A program made the position numbers and the translations under genes. From assembly GCF_024298765.1 (NCBI RefSeq), contig NZ_CP101210.1: a DNA stretch of 64,000 nucleotides. The stretch is one strand, 5' to 3'. Source of the DNA: Escherichia coli (GTDB lineage: Bacteria > Pseudomonadota > Gammaproteobacteria > Enterobacterales > Enterobacteriaceae). The notes beneath the pieces are model-generated. The model was given only the letters and a program-made list of their open reading frames with translations, was not told the origin of the DNA and ran no database searches. Below, one piece after another: positions 3,537-61,462 of the stretch. Positions within the stretch are counted from its first letter, which is position 1; each line of letters begins with the position of its first letter.

Positions 3537-4858
3537 CGCGACAGTTTTGCCAAGAGCGTTTTGCGCGTGATCCCTAACTGACGGGCGGCTTCGGTTTTGT
3601 TGCCGCCCGTTTTCTCCAGTGCCGCAAGAATCACCTCTTTTTCGACTTCCACCAGCGGCTGAATATCCTGACTTTGTACCAGCGGGATCGGCGTACTCGC
3701 AATCGCCAGCGGCAGCTCGCGTTCGGAAATATATTCCCCGGTCAGCAGCACCACCGCCCGTTCCACCGTGTTTTCCAGTTCACGAATATTTCCCGGCCAG
3801 TCGTAGTGAATCAGCAGATCCATCGCCTGGGGCGTAAAACCTTTTACCGCCTTACGATTACGCTCGGCAAAGCGCTGAAGAAAATGGTTTGCCAGCAGAG
3901 GAATATCTTCCCGCCGCTGACGCAGCGACGGAACTTCAATCGCCACCACGTTCAGGCGATAGTAGAGATCCTGGCGAAAACGCCCGGCATTCACCTCTGC
4001 GGCAAGATCGCGATGAGTCGCCGCAATCAGCCGGACATCAACCGAGATGGTCTGGTTGCTGCCGACACGCTGAACTTCGCGCTCCTGAATCGCACGCAGC
4101 AGACGAACCTGCATCATCGGCGAGATATCGCCAATTTCATCGAGAAACAGCGTGCCGCCGTCCGCCTCAACAAAGCGCCCTTCCCGGCGTTTATCGGCTC
4201 CGGTAAACGCCCCTTTTTCGTGACCGAACAATTCAGATTCCAGCAAGGATTCGTTGAGTGCCGCACAGTTGAGCGTTACCAGTGGTTTTTCACTCCGTGC
4301 GCTACTGGCGTGAATCGCCCTTGCGACCAGCTCTTTACCGGTGCCGGAATCGCCGTGGATCAGCACCGTGGCTTCCGATGGCGCGACGAGGGCGATTTCA
4401 CTGAGCAGGTGTTGCATCGCCGGGCTTTTACCGACCATACCGAACTGGCTGGCAGTCACCACAGGCGTTTCAGCATCAATACTGTGCGTATGTGCGAGCG
4501 CCTTTTCCAGCGTCGCCTGCAGGTTATCGAAATCCAGCGGCTTGATGAGATAATCCAGCGCCCCGGTTTTCAACGCTTCTACCGCCGTCTCGACGCTGGA
4601 GTACGCGGTCATAATCAGTACCGGAATCGCCGGATTTAACGCTTTGATCTCTTTTAGCGTGGCAATGCCGTCCATCTCTGCCATTCGCACATCGCAAAGC
4701 ACAAGATCAAAAACCTGTTCCCGCACCTGCTCCAGCGCCTGTCGCCCGCTGTTCGCCAGCGCGACGTTATAGCCCCAGCCGCGCAGCAAAGCCTGCAAAA
4801 TAGTGCAGTGGCTAATGTCATCATCCACCACCAGAATATCGATATTATCGTGCGTCAT
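3533..4858 (-). CDS. zraR: Sigma54-dependent response regulator (NtrC family)
   Basis: 441 aa; receiver domain, AAA+ sigma54 activator motifs ([14 protein letters not shown]), C-terminal HTH; 4-bp overlap with zraS. Confidence 0.95.
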
Positions 4859-46339: not shown

Positions 46340-47740
46340 ATGCCACATTCCTACGATTACGATGCCATAGTAATAGGTTCCGGCCCCGGCGGCGAAGGCG
46401 CTGCAATGGGCCTGGTTAAGCAAGGTGCGCGCGTCGCAGTTATCGAGCGTTATCAAAATGTTGGCGGCGGTTGCACCCACTGGGGCACCATCCCGTCGAA
46501 AGCTCTCCGTCACGCCGTCAGCCGCATTATAGAATTTAATCAAAACCCACTTTACAGCGACCATTCGCGACTGCTCCGCTCTTCTTTTGCCGATATCCTT
46601 AACCATGCCGATAACGTGATTAATCAACAAACGCGCATGCGTCAGGGATTTTACGAACGTAATCACTGTGAAATATTGCAGGGGAACGCTCGCTTTGTTG
46701 ACGAGCACACGCTGGCGCTGGATTGCCCGGACGGCAGCGTCGAGACACTAACCGCTGAAAAATTTGTTATTGCTTGCGGCTCTCGTCCATATCATCCAAC
46801 AGATGTTGATTTCACGCATCCACGCATTTACGACAGCGACTCAATTCTTAGCATGCACCACGAACCGCGCCATGTACTTATCTATGGTGCTGGAGTGATC
46901 GGCTGTGAATATGCGTCGATCTTCCGCGGTATGGATGTAAAAGTGGATCTGATCAACACCCGCGATCGCCTGCTGGCATTTCTCGATCAAGAGATGTCAG
47001 ATTCTCTCTCCTATCACTTCTGGAACAGTGGCGTAGTGATTCGTCACAACGAAGAGTACGAGAAGATCGAAGGCTGTGACGACGGTGTGATCATGCATTT
47101 GAAGTCGGGTAAAAAACTGAAAGCTGACTGCCTGCTCTATGCCAACGGTCGCACCGGTAATACCGATTCGCTGGCGTTACAGAACATTGGGCTGGAAACT
47201 GACAGCCGCGGACAGCTGAAGGTCAACAGCATGTATCAGACCGCACAGCCGCACGTTTACGCGGTGGGCGACGTGATTGGTTATCCGAGCCTGGCGTCGG
47301 CGGCCTATGACCAGGGGCGCATTGCCGCGCAGGCGCTGGTGAAAGGTGAAGCCACCGCACATCTGATTGAAGATATCCCTACCGGTATTTACACCATCCC
47401 GGAAATCAGCTCTGTGGGCAAAACCGAACAGCAGCTGACCGCGATGAAAGTGCCATATGAAGTGGGCCGCGCCCAGTTTAAACATCTGGCACGTGCACAA
47501 ATCGTCGGCATGAACGTGGGCACGCTGAAAATTTTGTTCCATCGGGAAACAAAAGAGATTCTGGGTATTCACTGCTTTGGCGAGCGCGCTGCCGAAATTA
47601 TTCATATCGGTCAGGCGATTATGGAACAGAAAGGTGGCGGCAACACTATTGAGTACTTCGTCAACACCACCTTTAACTACCCGACGATGGCGGAAGCCTA
47701 TCGGGTAGCTGCGCTAAATGGCTTAAACCGCCTGTTTTAA
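46340..47740 (+). CDS. sthA: Soluble pyridine nucleotide transhydrogenase
   Basis: 466 aa [38 protein letters not shown]; FAD/NAD Rossmann motifs. Confidence 0.97.
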
Positions 47741-48640
47741 CACTTTATCGAAATGGCCATCCATTCTTGCGCGGATGGCCTCTGCCAGCTGCTCATAGCG
47801 GCTGCGCAGCGGTGAGCCAGGACGATAAACCAGACCAATGGTACGGCGTGGTTCCGGCTTAATACACGGCAAATAAACAACCCCATCGCGTTTGCGCTCC
47901 GGCGGCACAGCCAGCGCAGGCAGTAAAGTGATCCCGCTACCTGCCGCCACCATGTTGCGCAGAGTTTCCAGGCTGGTCGCGCGGAAGTGTGTATCTTCAT
48001 CCGCCCCGGCTTCAAAACAGAAACCCATTGCCTGATCGCGCAAACAGTGACCGTCTTCCAGCATCAGCAGTTTTTCCCCTGCCAGATCGGCCATCGGTAC
48101 GCATTCGCGGTTCGCCCACGGATGGTCTTCATAGATAGCCAGCAACATTGGCTCATCAAACAACGGCACTTCAATGAATGCTTCGCTCTCTTTCACCAGC
48201 GCGAGGATCACGCAATCGAGTTTGCCGCTGTCCAGTTGCGCCAGTAACTGGTGGGTCTGTGCTTCATGCAGATACATTTCCAGCTTTGGAAAGGTCTGGT
48301 GCAGCATCGGGATAATATGCGGTAGCAGGTACGGTCCAACCGTGGGAATCAGACCAATATGCAGCGGTCCGGACATCGTCTCGCCCTGCTGGCTTGCCAT
48401 CTCTTTAAGGACTTTCACCTCACGCAGCACGGTACGCGCCTGATCCACCAGCAGCATTCCCGCCTGGGTGAATAACACTTTACGGCTGGTCCGCTCCAGC
48501 AACATCACACCCAACTCATCTTCCAGCTTACGAATTTGCCCGCTAAGCGTCGGCTGGCTAACGTGGCAGGAATCTGCCGCACGCCGAAAATGGCGGTGTT
48601 CGGCCAATGCCACCAGGTACTCAAGATCACGAATATTCAT
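47723..48640 (-). CDS. oxyR: LysR-family hydrogen peroxide-inducible regulator
   Basis: 305 aa from [44 protein letters not shown]; redox Cys residues present; 3' end overlaps sthA by 18 bp. Confidence 0.97.
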
Positions 48641-48735
48641 TATCCATCCTCCATTGCCACGATAGTTCGCGGCGATAGGTAGCATAGCAACGAACGATTA
48701 TCCCTATCAAGCATTCTGACTGATAATTGCTCACA

Positions 48736-48848
48736 GAAACGGAGCGGCACCTCTTTTAACCCTTGAAGTCACTGCCCGTTTCGAGAGTTTCTCAACTCGA
48801 ATAACTAAAGCCAACGTGAACTTTTGCGGATCTCCAGGATCCGCTTTT
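48736..48848 (+). ncRNA. oxyS: OxyS small regulatory RNA
   Basis: GAAACGGAGCGGCACCTCTTTTAACCCTTGAAGTCACTGCCCGTTTCGAGAGTTTCTCAACTCGAATAACTAAAGCCAACGTGAACTTTTGCGGATCTCCAGGATCCGCTTTTTTTT; divergent from oxyR. Confidence 0.92.
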
Positions 48849-48891
48849 TTTTATTCTACAGGCCCACAGCAAGAGAGCCTGATAGTAACGG

Positions 48892-50175
48892 TTACTCAAT
48901 CCGATCTTTGACAATAAAGAAGTAACACAGCGCCCCGGTGAACGTCACACAGGCCGCGATAACCAGCGCCAGATTAAACGAGTGTGTGGTATCCACGACC
49001 CAACCGGTTACGATCGGAGCAAAGGAAGCAAAAACAAAACTGCCAAAGTTTTGAATCCCGGCGATGGAAGCCACTTTTGTTTCTGACACCATCACCTGCA
49101 CCAGCCCCCATGCAGATGTTCCCGCGAAATGCACGCAGAACAGCGCCATTGAGATAAACGCTACCGCCTGGGCTGGCGAGGAAGATTGCACGACCAGCAA
49201 CGTGCCTAATGCCGACATCATCAAACCGCAGACAATCGCCGTTTTACGCGTCTTCGCCAGGTCATAGCCTTTTTTCGCCAGCCGATCGACAACAATACCG
49301 TTAACCCACATCCCGACCGCCGCCGCGAGGAAAGGAATTGCCGCCACCCAACCGGTTTTCGCCAGACTGAAACCTTGTTCGGCCTGCAAATAACCGGGTA
49401 ACCACGCGATGTAGAGCCAACCGGTATAATTGACGCCAGAGAAACCTAAAATCATCCCCCAGGTTGTCCGATGCTTAAACAGCGCCAGCCACTCGCTAAA
49501 TTGTAACTGTGGACGCGGTTTAACCGGCGCGGAGAGATATGTCCGTTCTTCCTCGGTCAGGACAAACTGCGCCCGGTTGCGATACCACGCGTACCAACAG
49601 ATCCCAACCAGAATCCCTGCTACGCCGATGATGACAAACATCGTCCGCCAGCCCCATGCCAGTTGCATCAATACAAGAGCAGGAGGCGCGATAGCCTGAC
49701 CGATAACGGTAGATGAGTTAAAAATCCCCAGCGCCGTGCCGCGTTCTTTTTGCGCATACCAGTCGGTGATCGACTTTACTCCCGCAGGCATAAATGGCGC
49801 TTCGCCAATACCCAGACCGATACGCATTAAAATAAAGTGGCTAAAAGAATTAACCATTCCTGTTAATGCCTGCATTAATGACCAGAATATTAAGCCTGCG
49901 CCTAACACTATTCGTGGGCCAAAGCGGTCTAGCAAAATACCGGAAGGAAGTTGTGAAAAACCATAAGACAGAGAAAATGCAGAAAGCAAAACACCAAACT
50001 CGGTAGCGGATAATCCTAACTCGCCACGAATTGCTTCACCTGCCACGCTCAATGACGAACGGTCGAGAAAATTAACGATCCCCGCCATAAATAATAAAAC
50101 CAGGGTCACTGTCTGAATACGACGAATCCGTTGCGGTTTATTACCCGCAACACTGGTTGACACATCAACGTCCAT
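48892..50175 (-). CDS. MFS transporter, anion:cation symporter family (hexonate/hexuronate-type)
   Basis: 427-aa ORF; MFS motif A GILLDRFGPRIV; about 12 hydrophobic segments; strong RBS aaggag; resembles the DgoT/ExuT/GudP/RhmT class by eye. Confidence 0.85.
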   Translation of the reverse strand: MDVDVSTSVAGNKPQRIRRIQTVTLVLLFMAGIVNFLDRSSLSVAGEAIRGELGLSATEFGVLLSAFSLSYGFSQLPSGILLDRFGPRIVLGAGLIFWSLMQALTGMVNSFSHFILMRIGLGIGEAPFMPAGVKSITDWYAQKERGTALGIFNSSTVIGQAIAPPALVLMQLAWGWRTMFVIIGVAGILVGICWYAWYRNRAQFVLTEEERTYLSAPVKPRPQLQFSEWLALFKHRTTWGMILGFSGVNYTGWLYIAWLPGYLQAEQGFSLAKTGWVAAIPFLAAAVGMWVNGIVVDRLAKKGYDLAKTRKTAIVCGLMMSALGTLLVVQSSSPAQAVAFISMALFCVHFAGTSAWGLVQVMVSETKVASIAGIQNFGSFVFASFAPIVTGWVVDTTHSFNLALVIAACVTFTGALCYFFIVKDRIE

Positions 50176-50241
50176 TTTTAGCTCCTTGAGCGGAATTAAT
50201 CGATTTGATGAATATTCAGAAAATAATTAAGCGAACCGCTA

Positions 50242-51456
50242 TTACCAGTTCCACAATGTGCCATCTTCCAGTCGTGCGACGGGGAGATACGCCGGGTCAT
50301 ACGGATATTTCGCCGCCAGTTTCTCATCGAAAGAAATACCCAGCCCCGGTTCATCGCCTGGGTGCATATAACCTTCATCGAAGCGCCAGCTATGCGGGAA
50401 GACTTCAAGCATTTGTTCGGAATAGCCCATGTACTCCTGAACGCCAAAGTTTGGCACCCAGAGGTCAAAATGCAGCGCCGCCGCATGGCAAACAGGCGAT
50501 AAATCTGAAGGGCCATGCGAACCGGTACGTACCTGATAAAGCGATGCAAAATCGGCAATCCGTCGCATCCCGGTAATGCCGCCTGCATGGGTAATCGTCG
50601 TGCGAATATAGTCAATCAGCTGCTCTTCGATTAACTGCTTGCAGTCCCAGATACTGTTAAACACTTCACCGACCGCAATCGGCGTCACGGTATGCTGACG
50701 AATCAGACGAAAACATTCCTGATTCTCGGCAGGCGTCGGATCTTCCATCCAGAACAGGCGGTAATCTTCAATGCTCTTCCCAAAGCGCGCCGCTTCGATG
50801 GGGGTCAGGCGATGGTGCATGTCATGCAACAGATGTTCGTTAAAACCGAACTTATTACGCACCGCTTCAAATAACTTCGGCGTAAAATCGAGATACTTTT
50901 CTGAAGACCACAACTGCTCTTCTGGCCACAGGCCTTTGGTTGCTGGTTCATACGCCAGTCCTTTGCCCTTCGCCAGACCATAGGTGGTTTGCATACCCGG
51001 TACACCACACTGCACACGAATCGCCTTAAAGCCCATCTGCTGGTGCTTTGCATAGTCTTCAAGGACTTCATCAATCGTACGCCCGGTGGTGTGGCAATAA
51101 ACCATAACGCCTTCACGAGAAGCACCACCAAGCAGTTGATACAATGGCATATTTGCCGCTTTTGCTTTGATATCCCACAACGCCATATCAATGGCAGAAA
51201 TGGCTGACATCGTGACGGGGCCACGTCGCCAGTAAGCACCTTTATAAAAGAATTGCCAGATATCTTCGATACGGCTGGCATCGCGGCCAATTAGTTGTGG
51301 ACAAAGATGATCTTTCAGATAAGAAGCGACCGACAATTCGCGACCATTTAACGTGGCATCTCCTAATCCACAAAGTCCGCTTGCAGTGGTTATTTTAAGC
51401 GTAACGAAATTACGCCCTGGGCAAGTAACAAAAACATCTGCAGCAATAATTTTCAT
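50242..51456 (-). CDS. Enolase-superfamily dehydratase, D-mannonate dehydratase (ManD/RspA-like) subgroup
   Basis: 404 aa from [24 protein letters not shown]; ManD-type motifs ([25 protein letters not shown]) and metal ligands in HDMHH / WMEDP / GEVF; RBS aggag. Confidence 0.85.
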
Positions 51457-51857
51457 TATTGCAATCTCCTGTGTTGTAAATAGACGTTTCAAACTTAATT
51501 TTGCGCCTACTACCATACAAGAGAGAAAGAGCGATTATTCAACCATGATCACATTAAAAATAAAAATTTCTACCGAGGAGAAAAAACACCCTCAAAAACC
51601 ACCTGAATAATTAGCTATCATCGTTAAAACAACACGTTAAATAATCACATAACAAACTCCATTAATCATTAAAAATGAACACAGCAATAGAAATGAATTA
51701 TATTCAATTAATTAAAGTATGTATTGGCTGATGTATTGAAAATATAATTTTTATGGGGAGAGTGAAGGTAAAGAAGACGCAAGAATAAAAAGGAATGTGA
51801 CAAATAATGGTTCTGGTTGGGCGTTAAATTTAAGGTCACCAGAATACTGACAAATTT

Positions 51858-51912
51858 CTGCCTGATGCGGCGTAAACGCCTTATCCGCCTACGAAGTGTC
51901 GCACTTTGTAGG
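51858..51912. repeat. REP/BIME-type palindromic repeat downstream of argH
   Basis: gcctgatgcggcgtaaacgccttatccgcctac followed by an imperfect palindrome gaagtgtcgcactttgtagg. Confidence 0.6.
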
Positions 51913-51953
51913 CGTGGTAAGCTCCCCATTTTCAGGGGAGCAATATAAACAAA

Positions 51954-53327
51954 CTACTCTAACCGAGCTTGCGCAAAAGCAATCGCCTGCGCCACCTGCT
52001 GCGGTGAGACGCCGCCTTTTGCAGCACGCTTGTCGAGGCACGATTGCAGCGACAGAATCGGATAGACATCTTCGCCAATCACCTGGCTGAATTTCTGCAA
52101 CTCACTGAGCGGCAGATCTTCCAACGCTTTGCCCTGACGAATGGCTTCCACCACAGCTTCACCCACAATATGGTGCGCCTCGCGGAACGGTACGCCTTTC
52201 GCCACCAGATAATCCGCCAGTTCAGTAGCGTTGGCGTAACCCTGCTGCGCCGCTTCCTGGCAACGCGGACGTTTCACCTGAATGCCGTCCAGCACCAGCG
52301 CCGCCATATGCAGGCAGTCCAGCCAGGTATCGAGCGCGTCGAACAGACCTTCTTTGTCTTCCTGCATATCTTTGTTGTAAGCCAGCGGCAAACCTTTCAG
52401 CGTCATCATCATGCCGGTTAACGCCCCCTGCACCCGACCGCATTTACCGCGAATCAGCTCCAGCGCATCCGGGTTTTTCTTCTGCGGCATTAATGATGAA
52501 CCGGAAGTCACACGGTCAGAAAGCTCCACAAACCCCGCTTCGCCGGTGTTAAAGAAAATCAGATCTTCAGCAAAACGCGACAGATGCACCATGCCGATAG
52601 CGGCAGCAGAAAGCAGTTCCAACACATGGTCACGGTCAGAAACGCTGTCGAGACTGTTACGGGTCGCCGAAGCAAAGCCCAGCCAGCCTGCTAACTGTTC
52701 ACGGTCGATTTCATAGGCCGTTCCTGCCAGTGCGCCACAGCCTAGCGGGCTGACATCCAGACGCTTAAGCGCGTCCTGCAAACGGCTTTCATCACGCGCC
52801 AGCATCTCAACGTAGGCCAGGCACCAGTGAGCGAACGTCACCGGCTGGGCGCGTTGCAGGTGAGTGTAACCCGGCATCACCGCGTCCTGATTGTTCTGCG
52901 CGGTCTCGACCAGAGCGGATTGTAACTGCCGGTTAGCCGTCAGCAACTCGCTAACGGTATCTTTGCACCACAGTTTCAGGTCAGTTGCTACCTGATCATT
53001 ACGGCTACGCCCGGTATGCAGTTTTTTGCCTAACTGACCCACTTTGTCGATCAGTTTGCCTTCCACCCAGCTATGGATATCTTCGGCGTCGCTTTCAAGG
53101 ATTTGTTGTGGCCTGGCGCGAACATCTTCCAGCAGCACGTTCAGCGCCTCTTCCAGTTGCGCCTGCTCTTCTGCGGTTAACACGCCGACCGTTACCAGGG
53201 CTTTGGACCAGGCCACAGAGCCAACAATATCCTGCTCCGCCAGACGGTAATCAAAGCGCAGTGAGTCGTTGAATTGTTTGAACCGTTGATCTGCTGCCTG
53301 GGTAAAACGCCCGCCCCAAAGTGCCAT
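51954..53327 (-). CDS. argH: Argininosuccinate lyase
   Basis: 457 aa [44 protein letters not shown]. Confidence 0.97.

Positions 53328-61364: not shown

Positions 61365-61462
<98 letters not shown>

Follow-up and report, generated by a model that had tools for sequence, protein, structure and literature searches.

The window analyzed here is a 64-kb stretch of the Escherichia coli chromosome, and strain 104 is 100% identical to it across the region of interest. The annotated gene order in this region is oxyR, MFS, manD, argH, and a 497-bp spacer separates argH from manD (Table 1). The preliminary description of this DNA had placed the spacer directly upstream of a dehydratase gene, and the product of that gene indeed matches the NCBIfam ManD equivalog at 731 bits (cutoff, 550). 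An NCBIfam search assigned the neighboring transporter to the MFS, as a D-galactonate-transporter subfamily type. The manD product is a D-mannonate dehydratase of the enolase superfamily and a paralog of RspA, and the transporter is an ACS-type MFS protein of the sugar-acid type. The annotated manD start, an ATG at 51456, is preceded at the right spacing (8 nt) by the Shine-Dalgarno sequence AGGAG (plus-strand CTCCT, 51466-51470), and it agrees with the N termini of homologs. An alternative in-frame ATG at 51516, 60 nt upstream, would give a 424-amino-acid open reading frame (ORF) and was rejected; it has no Shine-Dalgarno sequence and lies inside block A of the spacer.

In E. coli K-12, the oxyS terminator and the argH stop codon are only 54 bp apart, and positions 48846-51953 of the window, which stand in place of those 54 bp, are therefore an insert of 3.1 kb. 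On the right, its junction coincides exactly with the argH stop codon, which reads GAG TAG in the window and GGG TAA in K-12, and homology to K-12 resumes there, in line with the earlier proposal that the spacer forms the right-hand junction of an accessory insert. Also as proposed, the insert has no regulator gene; its content is manD and the MFS transporter gene only. The manD-proximal 204 bp of the spacer are single copy and occur in 1,864 of 5,426 complete E. coli genomes (about 34%), and the same layout was found in E. whittamii. Between the two species, the ManD protein is 99% identical and the third codon positions are just 81.5% identical. By these comparisons, the two island genes are evidently under purifying selection, and the cassette is evidently old within Escherichia, being common to E. 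coli and E. whittamii. A plasmid origin of the insert was rejected, as the only "plasmid" matches were two records of 1.0 and 4.8 Mb, which we took to be mislabeled chromosomes.

TABLE 1 Genes and spacer features between oxyR and argH in the 64-kb window
Feature	Position	Strand	Remarks
oxyR	47723-48640	-	
oxyS	48736-48845	+	Rfam, 139.5 bits
MFS transporter gene	48892-50175	-	
manD	50242-51456	-	
Noncoding spacer, 497 bp	51457-51953		Between argH and manD
Block A, manD-proximal leader	51457-51556	-	4/100 differences to E. whittamii
Block B, variable spacer	51557-51622	-	14/66 (21%) differences to E. whittamii
Block C, conserved 34-mer	51623-51656	-	0/34 differences to E. whittamii
Block D, AT-rich filler	51657-51754		Homologous to RIVM-type island spacer
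Putative trace of second, lost oxyS	51755-51821	+	Upstream region (decayed OxyR site, -10) and first few bases
38 nt between oxyS-promoter trace and REP	51822-51859		
REP element	51860-51892	+	Core pattern match, 51864-51885
13-bp hairpin of REP tail and truncated inverted REP (51908-51921)	51886-51921		Degenerate BIME; inverted repeat I2, 92% complementary
GC-rich 7-bp hairpin, GCTCCCC-N7-GGGGAGC	51921-51941	-	12 nt downstream of argH stop codon
argH stop codon	51954-51956	-	Right-hand junction of insert relative to K-12
argH	51954-53327	-	argB, argC, argE next

The spacer stands out by its base composition. Its GC content is 34.6%, or 31.0% for 51457-51850 with the REP part excluded, against a mean of 52.2% (standard deviation, 4.0%) for 497-nt segments across the 64 kb and against 49.8%, 50.9%, and 56.3% for manD, the MFS gene, and argH, respectively. 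Just 0.3% of such segments reach so low a value, all within a single trough, the spacer itself, which is the deepest in the 64 kb and the sole one below 40%. The strong AT-richness noted beforehand was thus borne out quantitatively by the windowed analysis, and the long A/T tracts quoted as examples are present in the spacer sequence. The further idea that the region is horizontally acquired AT-rich DNA fared less well. The locus is accessory, as that idea supposes, but the AT signature does not extend beyond the spacer, the GC content of the island genes being host-like, at about 50%, and their composition not atypical. The low GC content of the roughly 200-bp distal part of the spacer is best explained by unconstrained drift of noncoding DNA. 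The 66-nt spacer between manD and the MFS gene (50176-50241) is also AT-rich, at 33% GC, and it contains an exact (50194-50203) and a one-mismatch (50225-50234) match to the H-NS motif TCGWTWAATT.

At the argH end, the spacer carries a REP element with the sequence GCCTGATGCGGCGTAAACGCCTTATCCGCCTAC. REPs are imperfect palindromes of approximately 35 nt with the core GCCKGATGCGRCG...CGYCTTATC...GCCTAC, which this element matches. The 22-nt core pattern was found three times in the window and in none of 100 shuffles. The other two matches form a complete BIME of two inverted REPs at 61375-61447, and the 22-nt core of one of these is identical to that of the spacer REP. A 61-nt query across the REP matched at least 40 places per genome (median, 40) in 5,054 E. 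coli records, and Rfam returned the element as a weak match (27.6 bits) to naRNA4, a REP-derived family. The REP/BIME-like palindrome suspected next to the argH 3' end is thus a genuine member of a dispersed, multicopy family. Like other REP and BIME sequences, it is a 33-nt imperfect palindrome, extragenic and situated at the 3' end of an operon, here argCBH, and part of a second, inverted copy follows it. Unlike in an intact BIME, this second REP is cut in the window to a 14-nt start, with an 18-nt gap where E. whittamii has a full second REP; since both REPs are complete in E. whittamii, the ancestral structure was a BIME. Unlike a standard REP, the first copy is one base short in its ...CCGGCCTAC tail. 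In strains Z226-7 and KN13-4, 15 nt of the REP are deleted, so the element may be dispensable.

Between the REP pair and argH lies a GC-rich hairpin that, by its position and predicted fold, marks the 3' end structure of the argCBH mRNA. The argH-sense (minus-strand) RNA of 51840-51965 folds into three hairpins with z = -5.1. All eight sequences of the window type and of E. whittamii keep the stem of the GC-rich hairpin, E. whittamii having a single change in the loop, and the RIVM-type island form described below has no counterpart of it. A canonical argCBH terminator was not recognized here; the hairpin has no U-tract (UUACCACG follows it on the argH strand), and a terminator scan made no call, whereas K-12 has a canonical hairpin and T-run at the corresponding place. 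Since argH and manD lie on the same strand, read-through from one into the other is possible.

The spacer was aligned in nine alleles, namely, those of the window, six other E. coli strains, E. whittamii, and a rarer island form (RIVM-type), and the third codon positions of manD and argH, which are 81.5 to 83% identical to those of E. whittamii, served as a neutral yardstick. The blocks thus delimited differ sharply in rate (Table 1). Blocks A and C taken together show 4 differences to E. whittamii in 134 positions, where about 17% would be expected (P = 4e-7). Blocks D to F (51657-51860), in contrast, show 36 differences in 204 positions (17.6%), against about 17 to 18% at third codon positions. 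Block A is 96/100 identical also in the RIVM-type allele, and block B, with 21 differences to that allele in 66 positions, changes at about the neutral rate or faster. On these counts, blocks B and D to F evolve at about the neutral rate, and only about 134 bp of the 497 bp are measurably constrained. Block C, the 34-mer GTTAAAACAACACGTTAAATAATCACATAACAAA at 167 to 200 nt upstream of the manD ATG, is invariant in the nine aligned alleles, including 34/34 positions in the RIVM-type allele, although the flanks of the latter differ by 32 to 45%. The only variation seen in block C is a CGTG-to-CACG change in one further allele, that of strain E500002 (alignment columns 67 and 68; window positions about 51634-51637). 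The new tetranucleotide is the reverse complement of the old one in place and looks like a 4-nt inversion or a template switch at a small palindrome.

Blocks A and C are likely the control region of manD, and block C is a candidate operator, activator site, or arm of a leader helix. The preliminary description had called the spacer the probable promoter and right-hand junction of the insert. The junction was confirmed at the argH stop codon, but a promoter is presumed rather than located, as the sigma-70 scans came out at chance level. One promoter-like site was found in the spacer, against 2.0 ± 1.5 by chance, and none stands out. The chance-level candidates include a perfect TATAAT at 51702-51697 on the manD strand, with a poor -35 element, and a TTGAAT-19-TATGGT arrangement inside block A; the promoter-like hexamers of block D, on both strands, occur at or below chance level. 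Binding sites for CRP, KdgR, GntR/IdnR, ExuR/UxuR, and IHF were compared by eye with the consensus sequences, and none fits. KdgR-like half-sites at 51668-51697 are direct repeats, are not conserved, and were likewise rejected.

The origin of the distal part of the spacer became clearer through the rarer, RIVM-type form of the island. In RIVM_C037791 (NZ_CP086624.1, locus L084), a decayed but full-length second oxyS lies at L084:3883-4005, between manD and an FGGY kinase gene. This relic is present in 146 to 147 genomes, is divergent from manD, and is unannotated in RefSeq. It aligns with positions 1 to 110 of the Rfam OxyS model at 35.5 bits (E = 1.5e-5; gathering threshold, 75), with many noncanonical pairs and a 12-nt loop insertion, and it shares 81.6% identity with the true oxyS of 5,425 genomes (E = 8e-15; pairwise z = 40). 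About 45 nt upstream of it align with the promoter region of the true oxyS (z = 3.2). A second allele of the relic, in E500002 (L091, about 4024-4146), shows 7.5% divergence from the first within the relic, and the differences in the terminator stem are not compensatory, as is expected of a pseudogene. With the relic, the manD-MFS cassette of RIVM-type strains is bracketed by direct oxyS copies.

RIVM-type strains, about 2.7% of genomes, further carry a 9-kb sugar-utilization module (L084:4016-13131) between the spacer and argH, with genes for an FGGY kinase, an L-ribulose-5-phosphate 3-epimerase, a sugar ABC transporter, a DeoR regulator, and araD. The relic-bearing spacer adjoins the FGGY gene in 146 of the 147 genomes that have this gene, the exception being H75, which gave a partial match. 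The argH-proximal hairpin of this form, GCCTGGCGTTTTGCCAGGC, resembles the K-12 terminator GCCCGGCGATAAGCCAGGC. Between the window-type and RIVM-type islands, manD is 98.8% identical, whereas block B is 68% and block D about 55% identical (51557-51860 versus L084:3628-3900), a spacer divergence greater than that between E. coli and E. whittamii. Because spacer identity is so far below manD identity, the alleles of the spacer must be much more ancient than those of the gene beside it, and this in turn implies that recombination breakpoints lie within the spacer.

The distal part of the window spacer is homologous to this relic-bearing DNA. Positions 51670-51821 are collinear with L084:3734-3888 (z = 6.3; 0 of 1,000 shuffles as good), and the alignment runs 6 nt into the RIVM-type relic. 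In the same register, 51755-51813 aligns with the region upstream of the true oxyS, 48670-48732, at z = 2.9, with 14 of 1,000 shuffles as good, and an nhmmer profile of true and relic oxyS regions matched 51769-51817 at E = 0.0014. The oxyS body itself was not significant in the window in direct pairwise tests, and the OxyS covariance model (RF00035) gave no match in 51300-52100 at E ≤ 10. In direct tests, the signal of the window trace is thus weak, and the case for it depends mostly on transitivity via the RIVM-type allele. By eye, the TTAA...AAGGTCAC...ATTTCT of 51822-51859 resembles the oxyS TTAACCCTTGAAGTCAC...GTTTCT, and pairwise tests of this resemblance were not significant; the 38 nt may be a remnant of the 5' part of oxyS. 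An alternative register, with 51780-51801 against oxyS positions 64 to 87, was not significant, nor was an extension of the duplication into the oxyR coding sequence (z about 0).

The trace shares with the oxyS locus a GAC..ATAAT.G.TC string aligned with the -10 region of the true gene, and, as in the oxyR/oxyS pair, it is divergent from its neighbor, here manD rather than oxyR. The ATAG/CTAT motifs of the OxyR site, read from the sequence, are not retained in the aligned segment, and the window spacer has neither an intact oxyS terminator nor conserved oxyS stems. Unlike OxyS proper, the window has no covariance-model match, the best relic remains well below the gathering threshold, and the relics have broken stems and a damaged terminator. 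The window trace is a pseudogene trace and not an sRNA gene. The place of the oxyS body is taken in the window by the REP/BIME and the argH hairpin. We infer from the alignments that an ancestor had the order oxyS, MFS-manD, second oxyS copy, and that the copy separated from oxyR decayed, its body being lost in the window lineage. The second copy could have arisen by recombination with a donor that had the cassette beside its own oxyS or by local duplication. One published account traces oxyS to the 3' end of a gene for a peroxidase and, as to gene order, covers only the canonical oxyR-oxyS-argH arrangement (PMC8825220).

In light of these observations, the 497 bp are probably best read as the composite noncoding right end of an old, 3.1-kb accessory manD-MFS cassette lodged between oxyS and argH. 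Proceeding in the minus-strand direction, the argCBH mRNA would end in the GC-rich hairpin, with the REP and the truncated inverted REP coming next. Judging from other REP/BIME sequences, these would make the 3' end more stable and shield the downstream operon in part, with some read-through from argH into manD possible. The next approximately 200 bp of AT-rich, neutrally evolving DNA, homologous to the relic-bearing spacer, would be the remains of a duplicated oxyS locus, the body of the second oxyS having presumably been replaced in the window lineage by the REP and the argH junction. The two conserved blocks would then serve as the manD-MFS control region, holding a promoter, an operator, or both, with the regulator encoded at another locus, and their leader would include a pyrimidine tract able to pair with the Shine-Dalgarno sequence. 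The spacer is, overall, a real but ordinary intergenic region with one small evolutionary curiosity.

A reading that could operate alongside the composite one, and does not exclude it, is that of a foreign promoter silenced by H-NS, the view taken in the preliminary description, in which the AT tract nucleates H-NS and manD-MFS stays off unless an antisilencer acts. We regard this as possible, with the odds somewhat against it. H-NS nucleates at the motif tCG(t/a)T(a/t)AATT, and DNA bound by H-NS typically contains many weak promoter-like hexamers. The spacer without its REP part is 69% AT, has two one-mismatch matches to the motif (51704 and 51821), in addition to the exact match at 50194 in the manD-MFS spacer, and carries many weak promoter-like hexamers on both strands; in its strong local AT excess, its accessory setting, and these hexamers, it resembles H-NS-bound AT-rich intergenic regions. 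However, any AT-rich DNA would be expected to contain matches to the motif at this stringency, the window having 26 against 13.9 ± 3.8 by chance. Unlike in H-NS-bound acquired regions, the island genes are not AT-rich, and the age of the island, shared by E. coli and E. whittamii, and the strong purifying selection on its proteins also argue against a silenced foreign element. Unlike a conserved H-NS silencer, moreover, most of the AT-rich spacer DNA acts as neutrally drifting filler. A conserved small-protein or sRNA gene that would account for the length of the spacer is far less probable still, and we consider it very improbable. The sole sizeable ORF, which is also the largest, has an ATG start and encodes 73 amino acids on the minus strand (51708-51929). 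It is intact in five of nine variants, a point in its favor, but it starts inside the argH hairpin and reads through the REP, which it translates as the LRRRIRRLRRIRQ stretch; it is broken or rephased in strains Z226-7 and KN13-4 (L089 and L090) and in E. whittamii (3 of 9 variants), and it matches no NCBIfam family. The segment 51790-51860 is somewhat better kept than neutral DNA (6/71 differences to E. whittamii), and there is a promoter-like site on the plus strand, at 51676-51704, although a single such site does not exceed the number expected by chance. RefSeq (PGAP) annotates nothing in the spacer in eight E. coli strains, and by E-value the only Rfam families in 51300-52100 were the REP-related naRNA4 and a chance-level CRISPR-repeat match. 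The region is therefore noncoding, as the preliminary description held.

The conserved blocks could also act at the RNA level, as a structured, riboswitch-like or protein-binding 5' leader that starts upstream of block C, forms a helix between blocks C and A, and lets a ligand or protein gate translation. Block C GTTAAATAATC (51636-51646) is complementary to block A GATTATTCAAC (51533-51543; repeat I6), a pairing extendable to 13 bp, and the pyrimidine-rich tract CUCUCUUGU of block A (51516-51525) is predicted to pair with the Shine-Dalgarno sequence. Both the 13-bp helix and the hairpin that would sequester the Shine-Dalgarno sequence appear in the minimum-free-energy (MFE) and the consensus structures; the manD-sense leader fold that includes this hairpin has an MFE z of -3.5, with 0 of 200 shuffles as stable. 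Both paired blocks are kept while the 66 nt in between drift, the perfect -10 hexamer on the minus strand (TATAAT, 51702-51697) lies upstream, and gating by a ligand or protein could explain the absence of a regulator gene. Against this, the alignment fold has compensatory changes in 0 of 78 predicted pairs, the paired columns hardly varying, and a covariation term of -0.98; there is no Rfam family match for the leader, and the -35 element of the upstream promoter is poor. A DNA operator present in two inverted copies, about 103 bp apart, could account for this complementarity just as well. We consider a structured leader unlikely, and it is slightly less likely again that blocks A and C belong to a manD leader of approximately 230 nt that senses a sugar acid or binds a protein to gate the Shine-Dalgarno sequence. 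If true, such a leader would be an undescribed cis-regulatory RNA standing in for the missing regulator gene. In a smaller variant of this unlikely reading, the leftover oxyS promoter would still fire and yield an RNA that ends in the REP and is antisense to the 3' end of argH.

Under the favored composite reading, the analysis amounts to a precise control-region map of an accessory sugar-acid operon that about one in three E. coli genomes carries, among them those of B2 strains such as NC101. Its practical value is modest, namely, that the map narrows 497 bp to 134 bp. The gap between oxyS and argH has existed in at least three states, in one of which a decayed second copy of a well-studied sRNA gene survives, a rare and datable example of sRNA gene duplication and decay. 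For annotation, the relic carries a warning too, as it escapes covariance models at the gathering threshold.

Relatives of the two island genes occur elsewhere. RspA is a ManD-subgroup dehydratase, and the K-12 rspAB operon is regulated by the GntR-type protein RspR/YdfH. Second ManD-like loci of E. coli and E. whittamii are 91 to 92% identical in protein sequence to the island ManD and, going by the K-12 gene order, would be rspA. Relatives in other Enterobacterales, at 91 to 94% protein identity, appear to be mostly rspA-type loci, and in Lelliottia and Pluralibacter, orthologs of the MFS gene adjoin a manD/rspA-type gene next to ynfA. The island manD resembles the rspAB operon in encoding a close paralog of RspA-type dehydratases but, unlike it, has no rspB-type dehydrogenase or regulator beside it. 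In a comparison of the spacer with the upstream regions of 83 loci (blastn, word size 7), only the E. coli and E. whittamii island copies matched, and no similarity was found to the regions upstream of 80 ManD/RspA loci of other species or of the second E. coli locus. The possibility that the spacer is a remnant of neighbors of the ynfA, speG, ynfB, or ynfC type, as in Lelliottia and Pluralibacter, was rejected, as tblastn detected nothing in the spacer. Literature searches aimed at the island and at ManD/RspA turned up no paper on a manD-MFS island between oxyS and argH and, in passing, nothing on a second oxyS copy.

Two further observations concern the surroundings of the spacer. In E. whittamii, a tandem array of four REP copies 123 nt apart (L004:428-832) lies just upstream of the arg cluster, near argE. 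In Z226-7 and KN13-4 (1212-2219 in L089 and L090), the MFS gene is annotated 276 nt shorter, at 1,008 rather than 1,284 nt, and these are the same two strains that have the 15-nt deletion inside the REP; together, the two changes may reflect decay of the cassette in that lineage.
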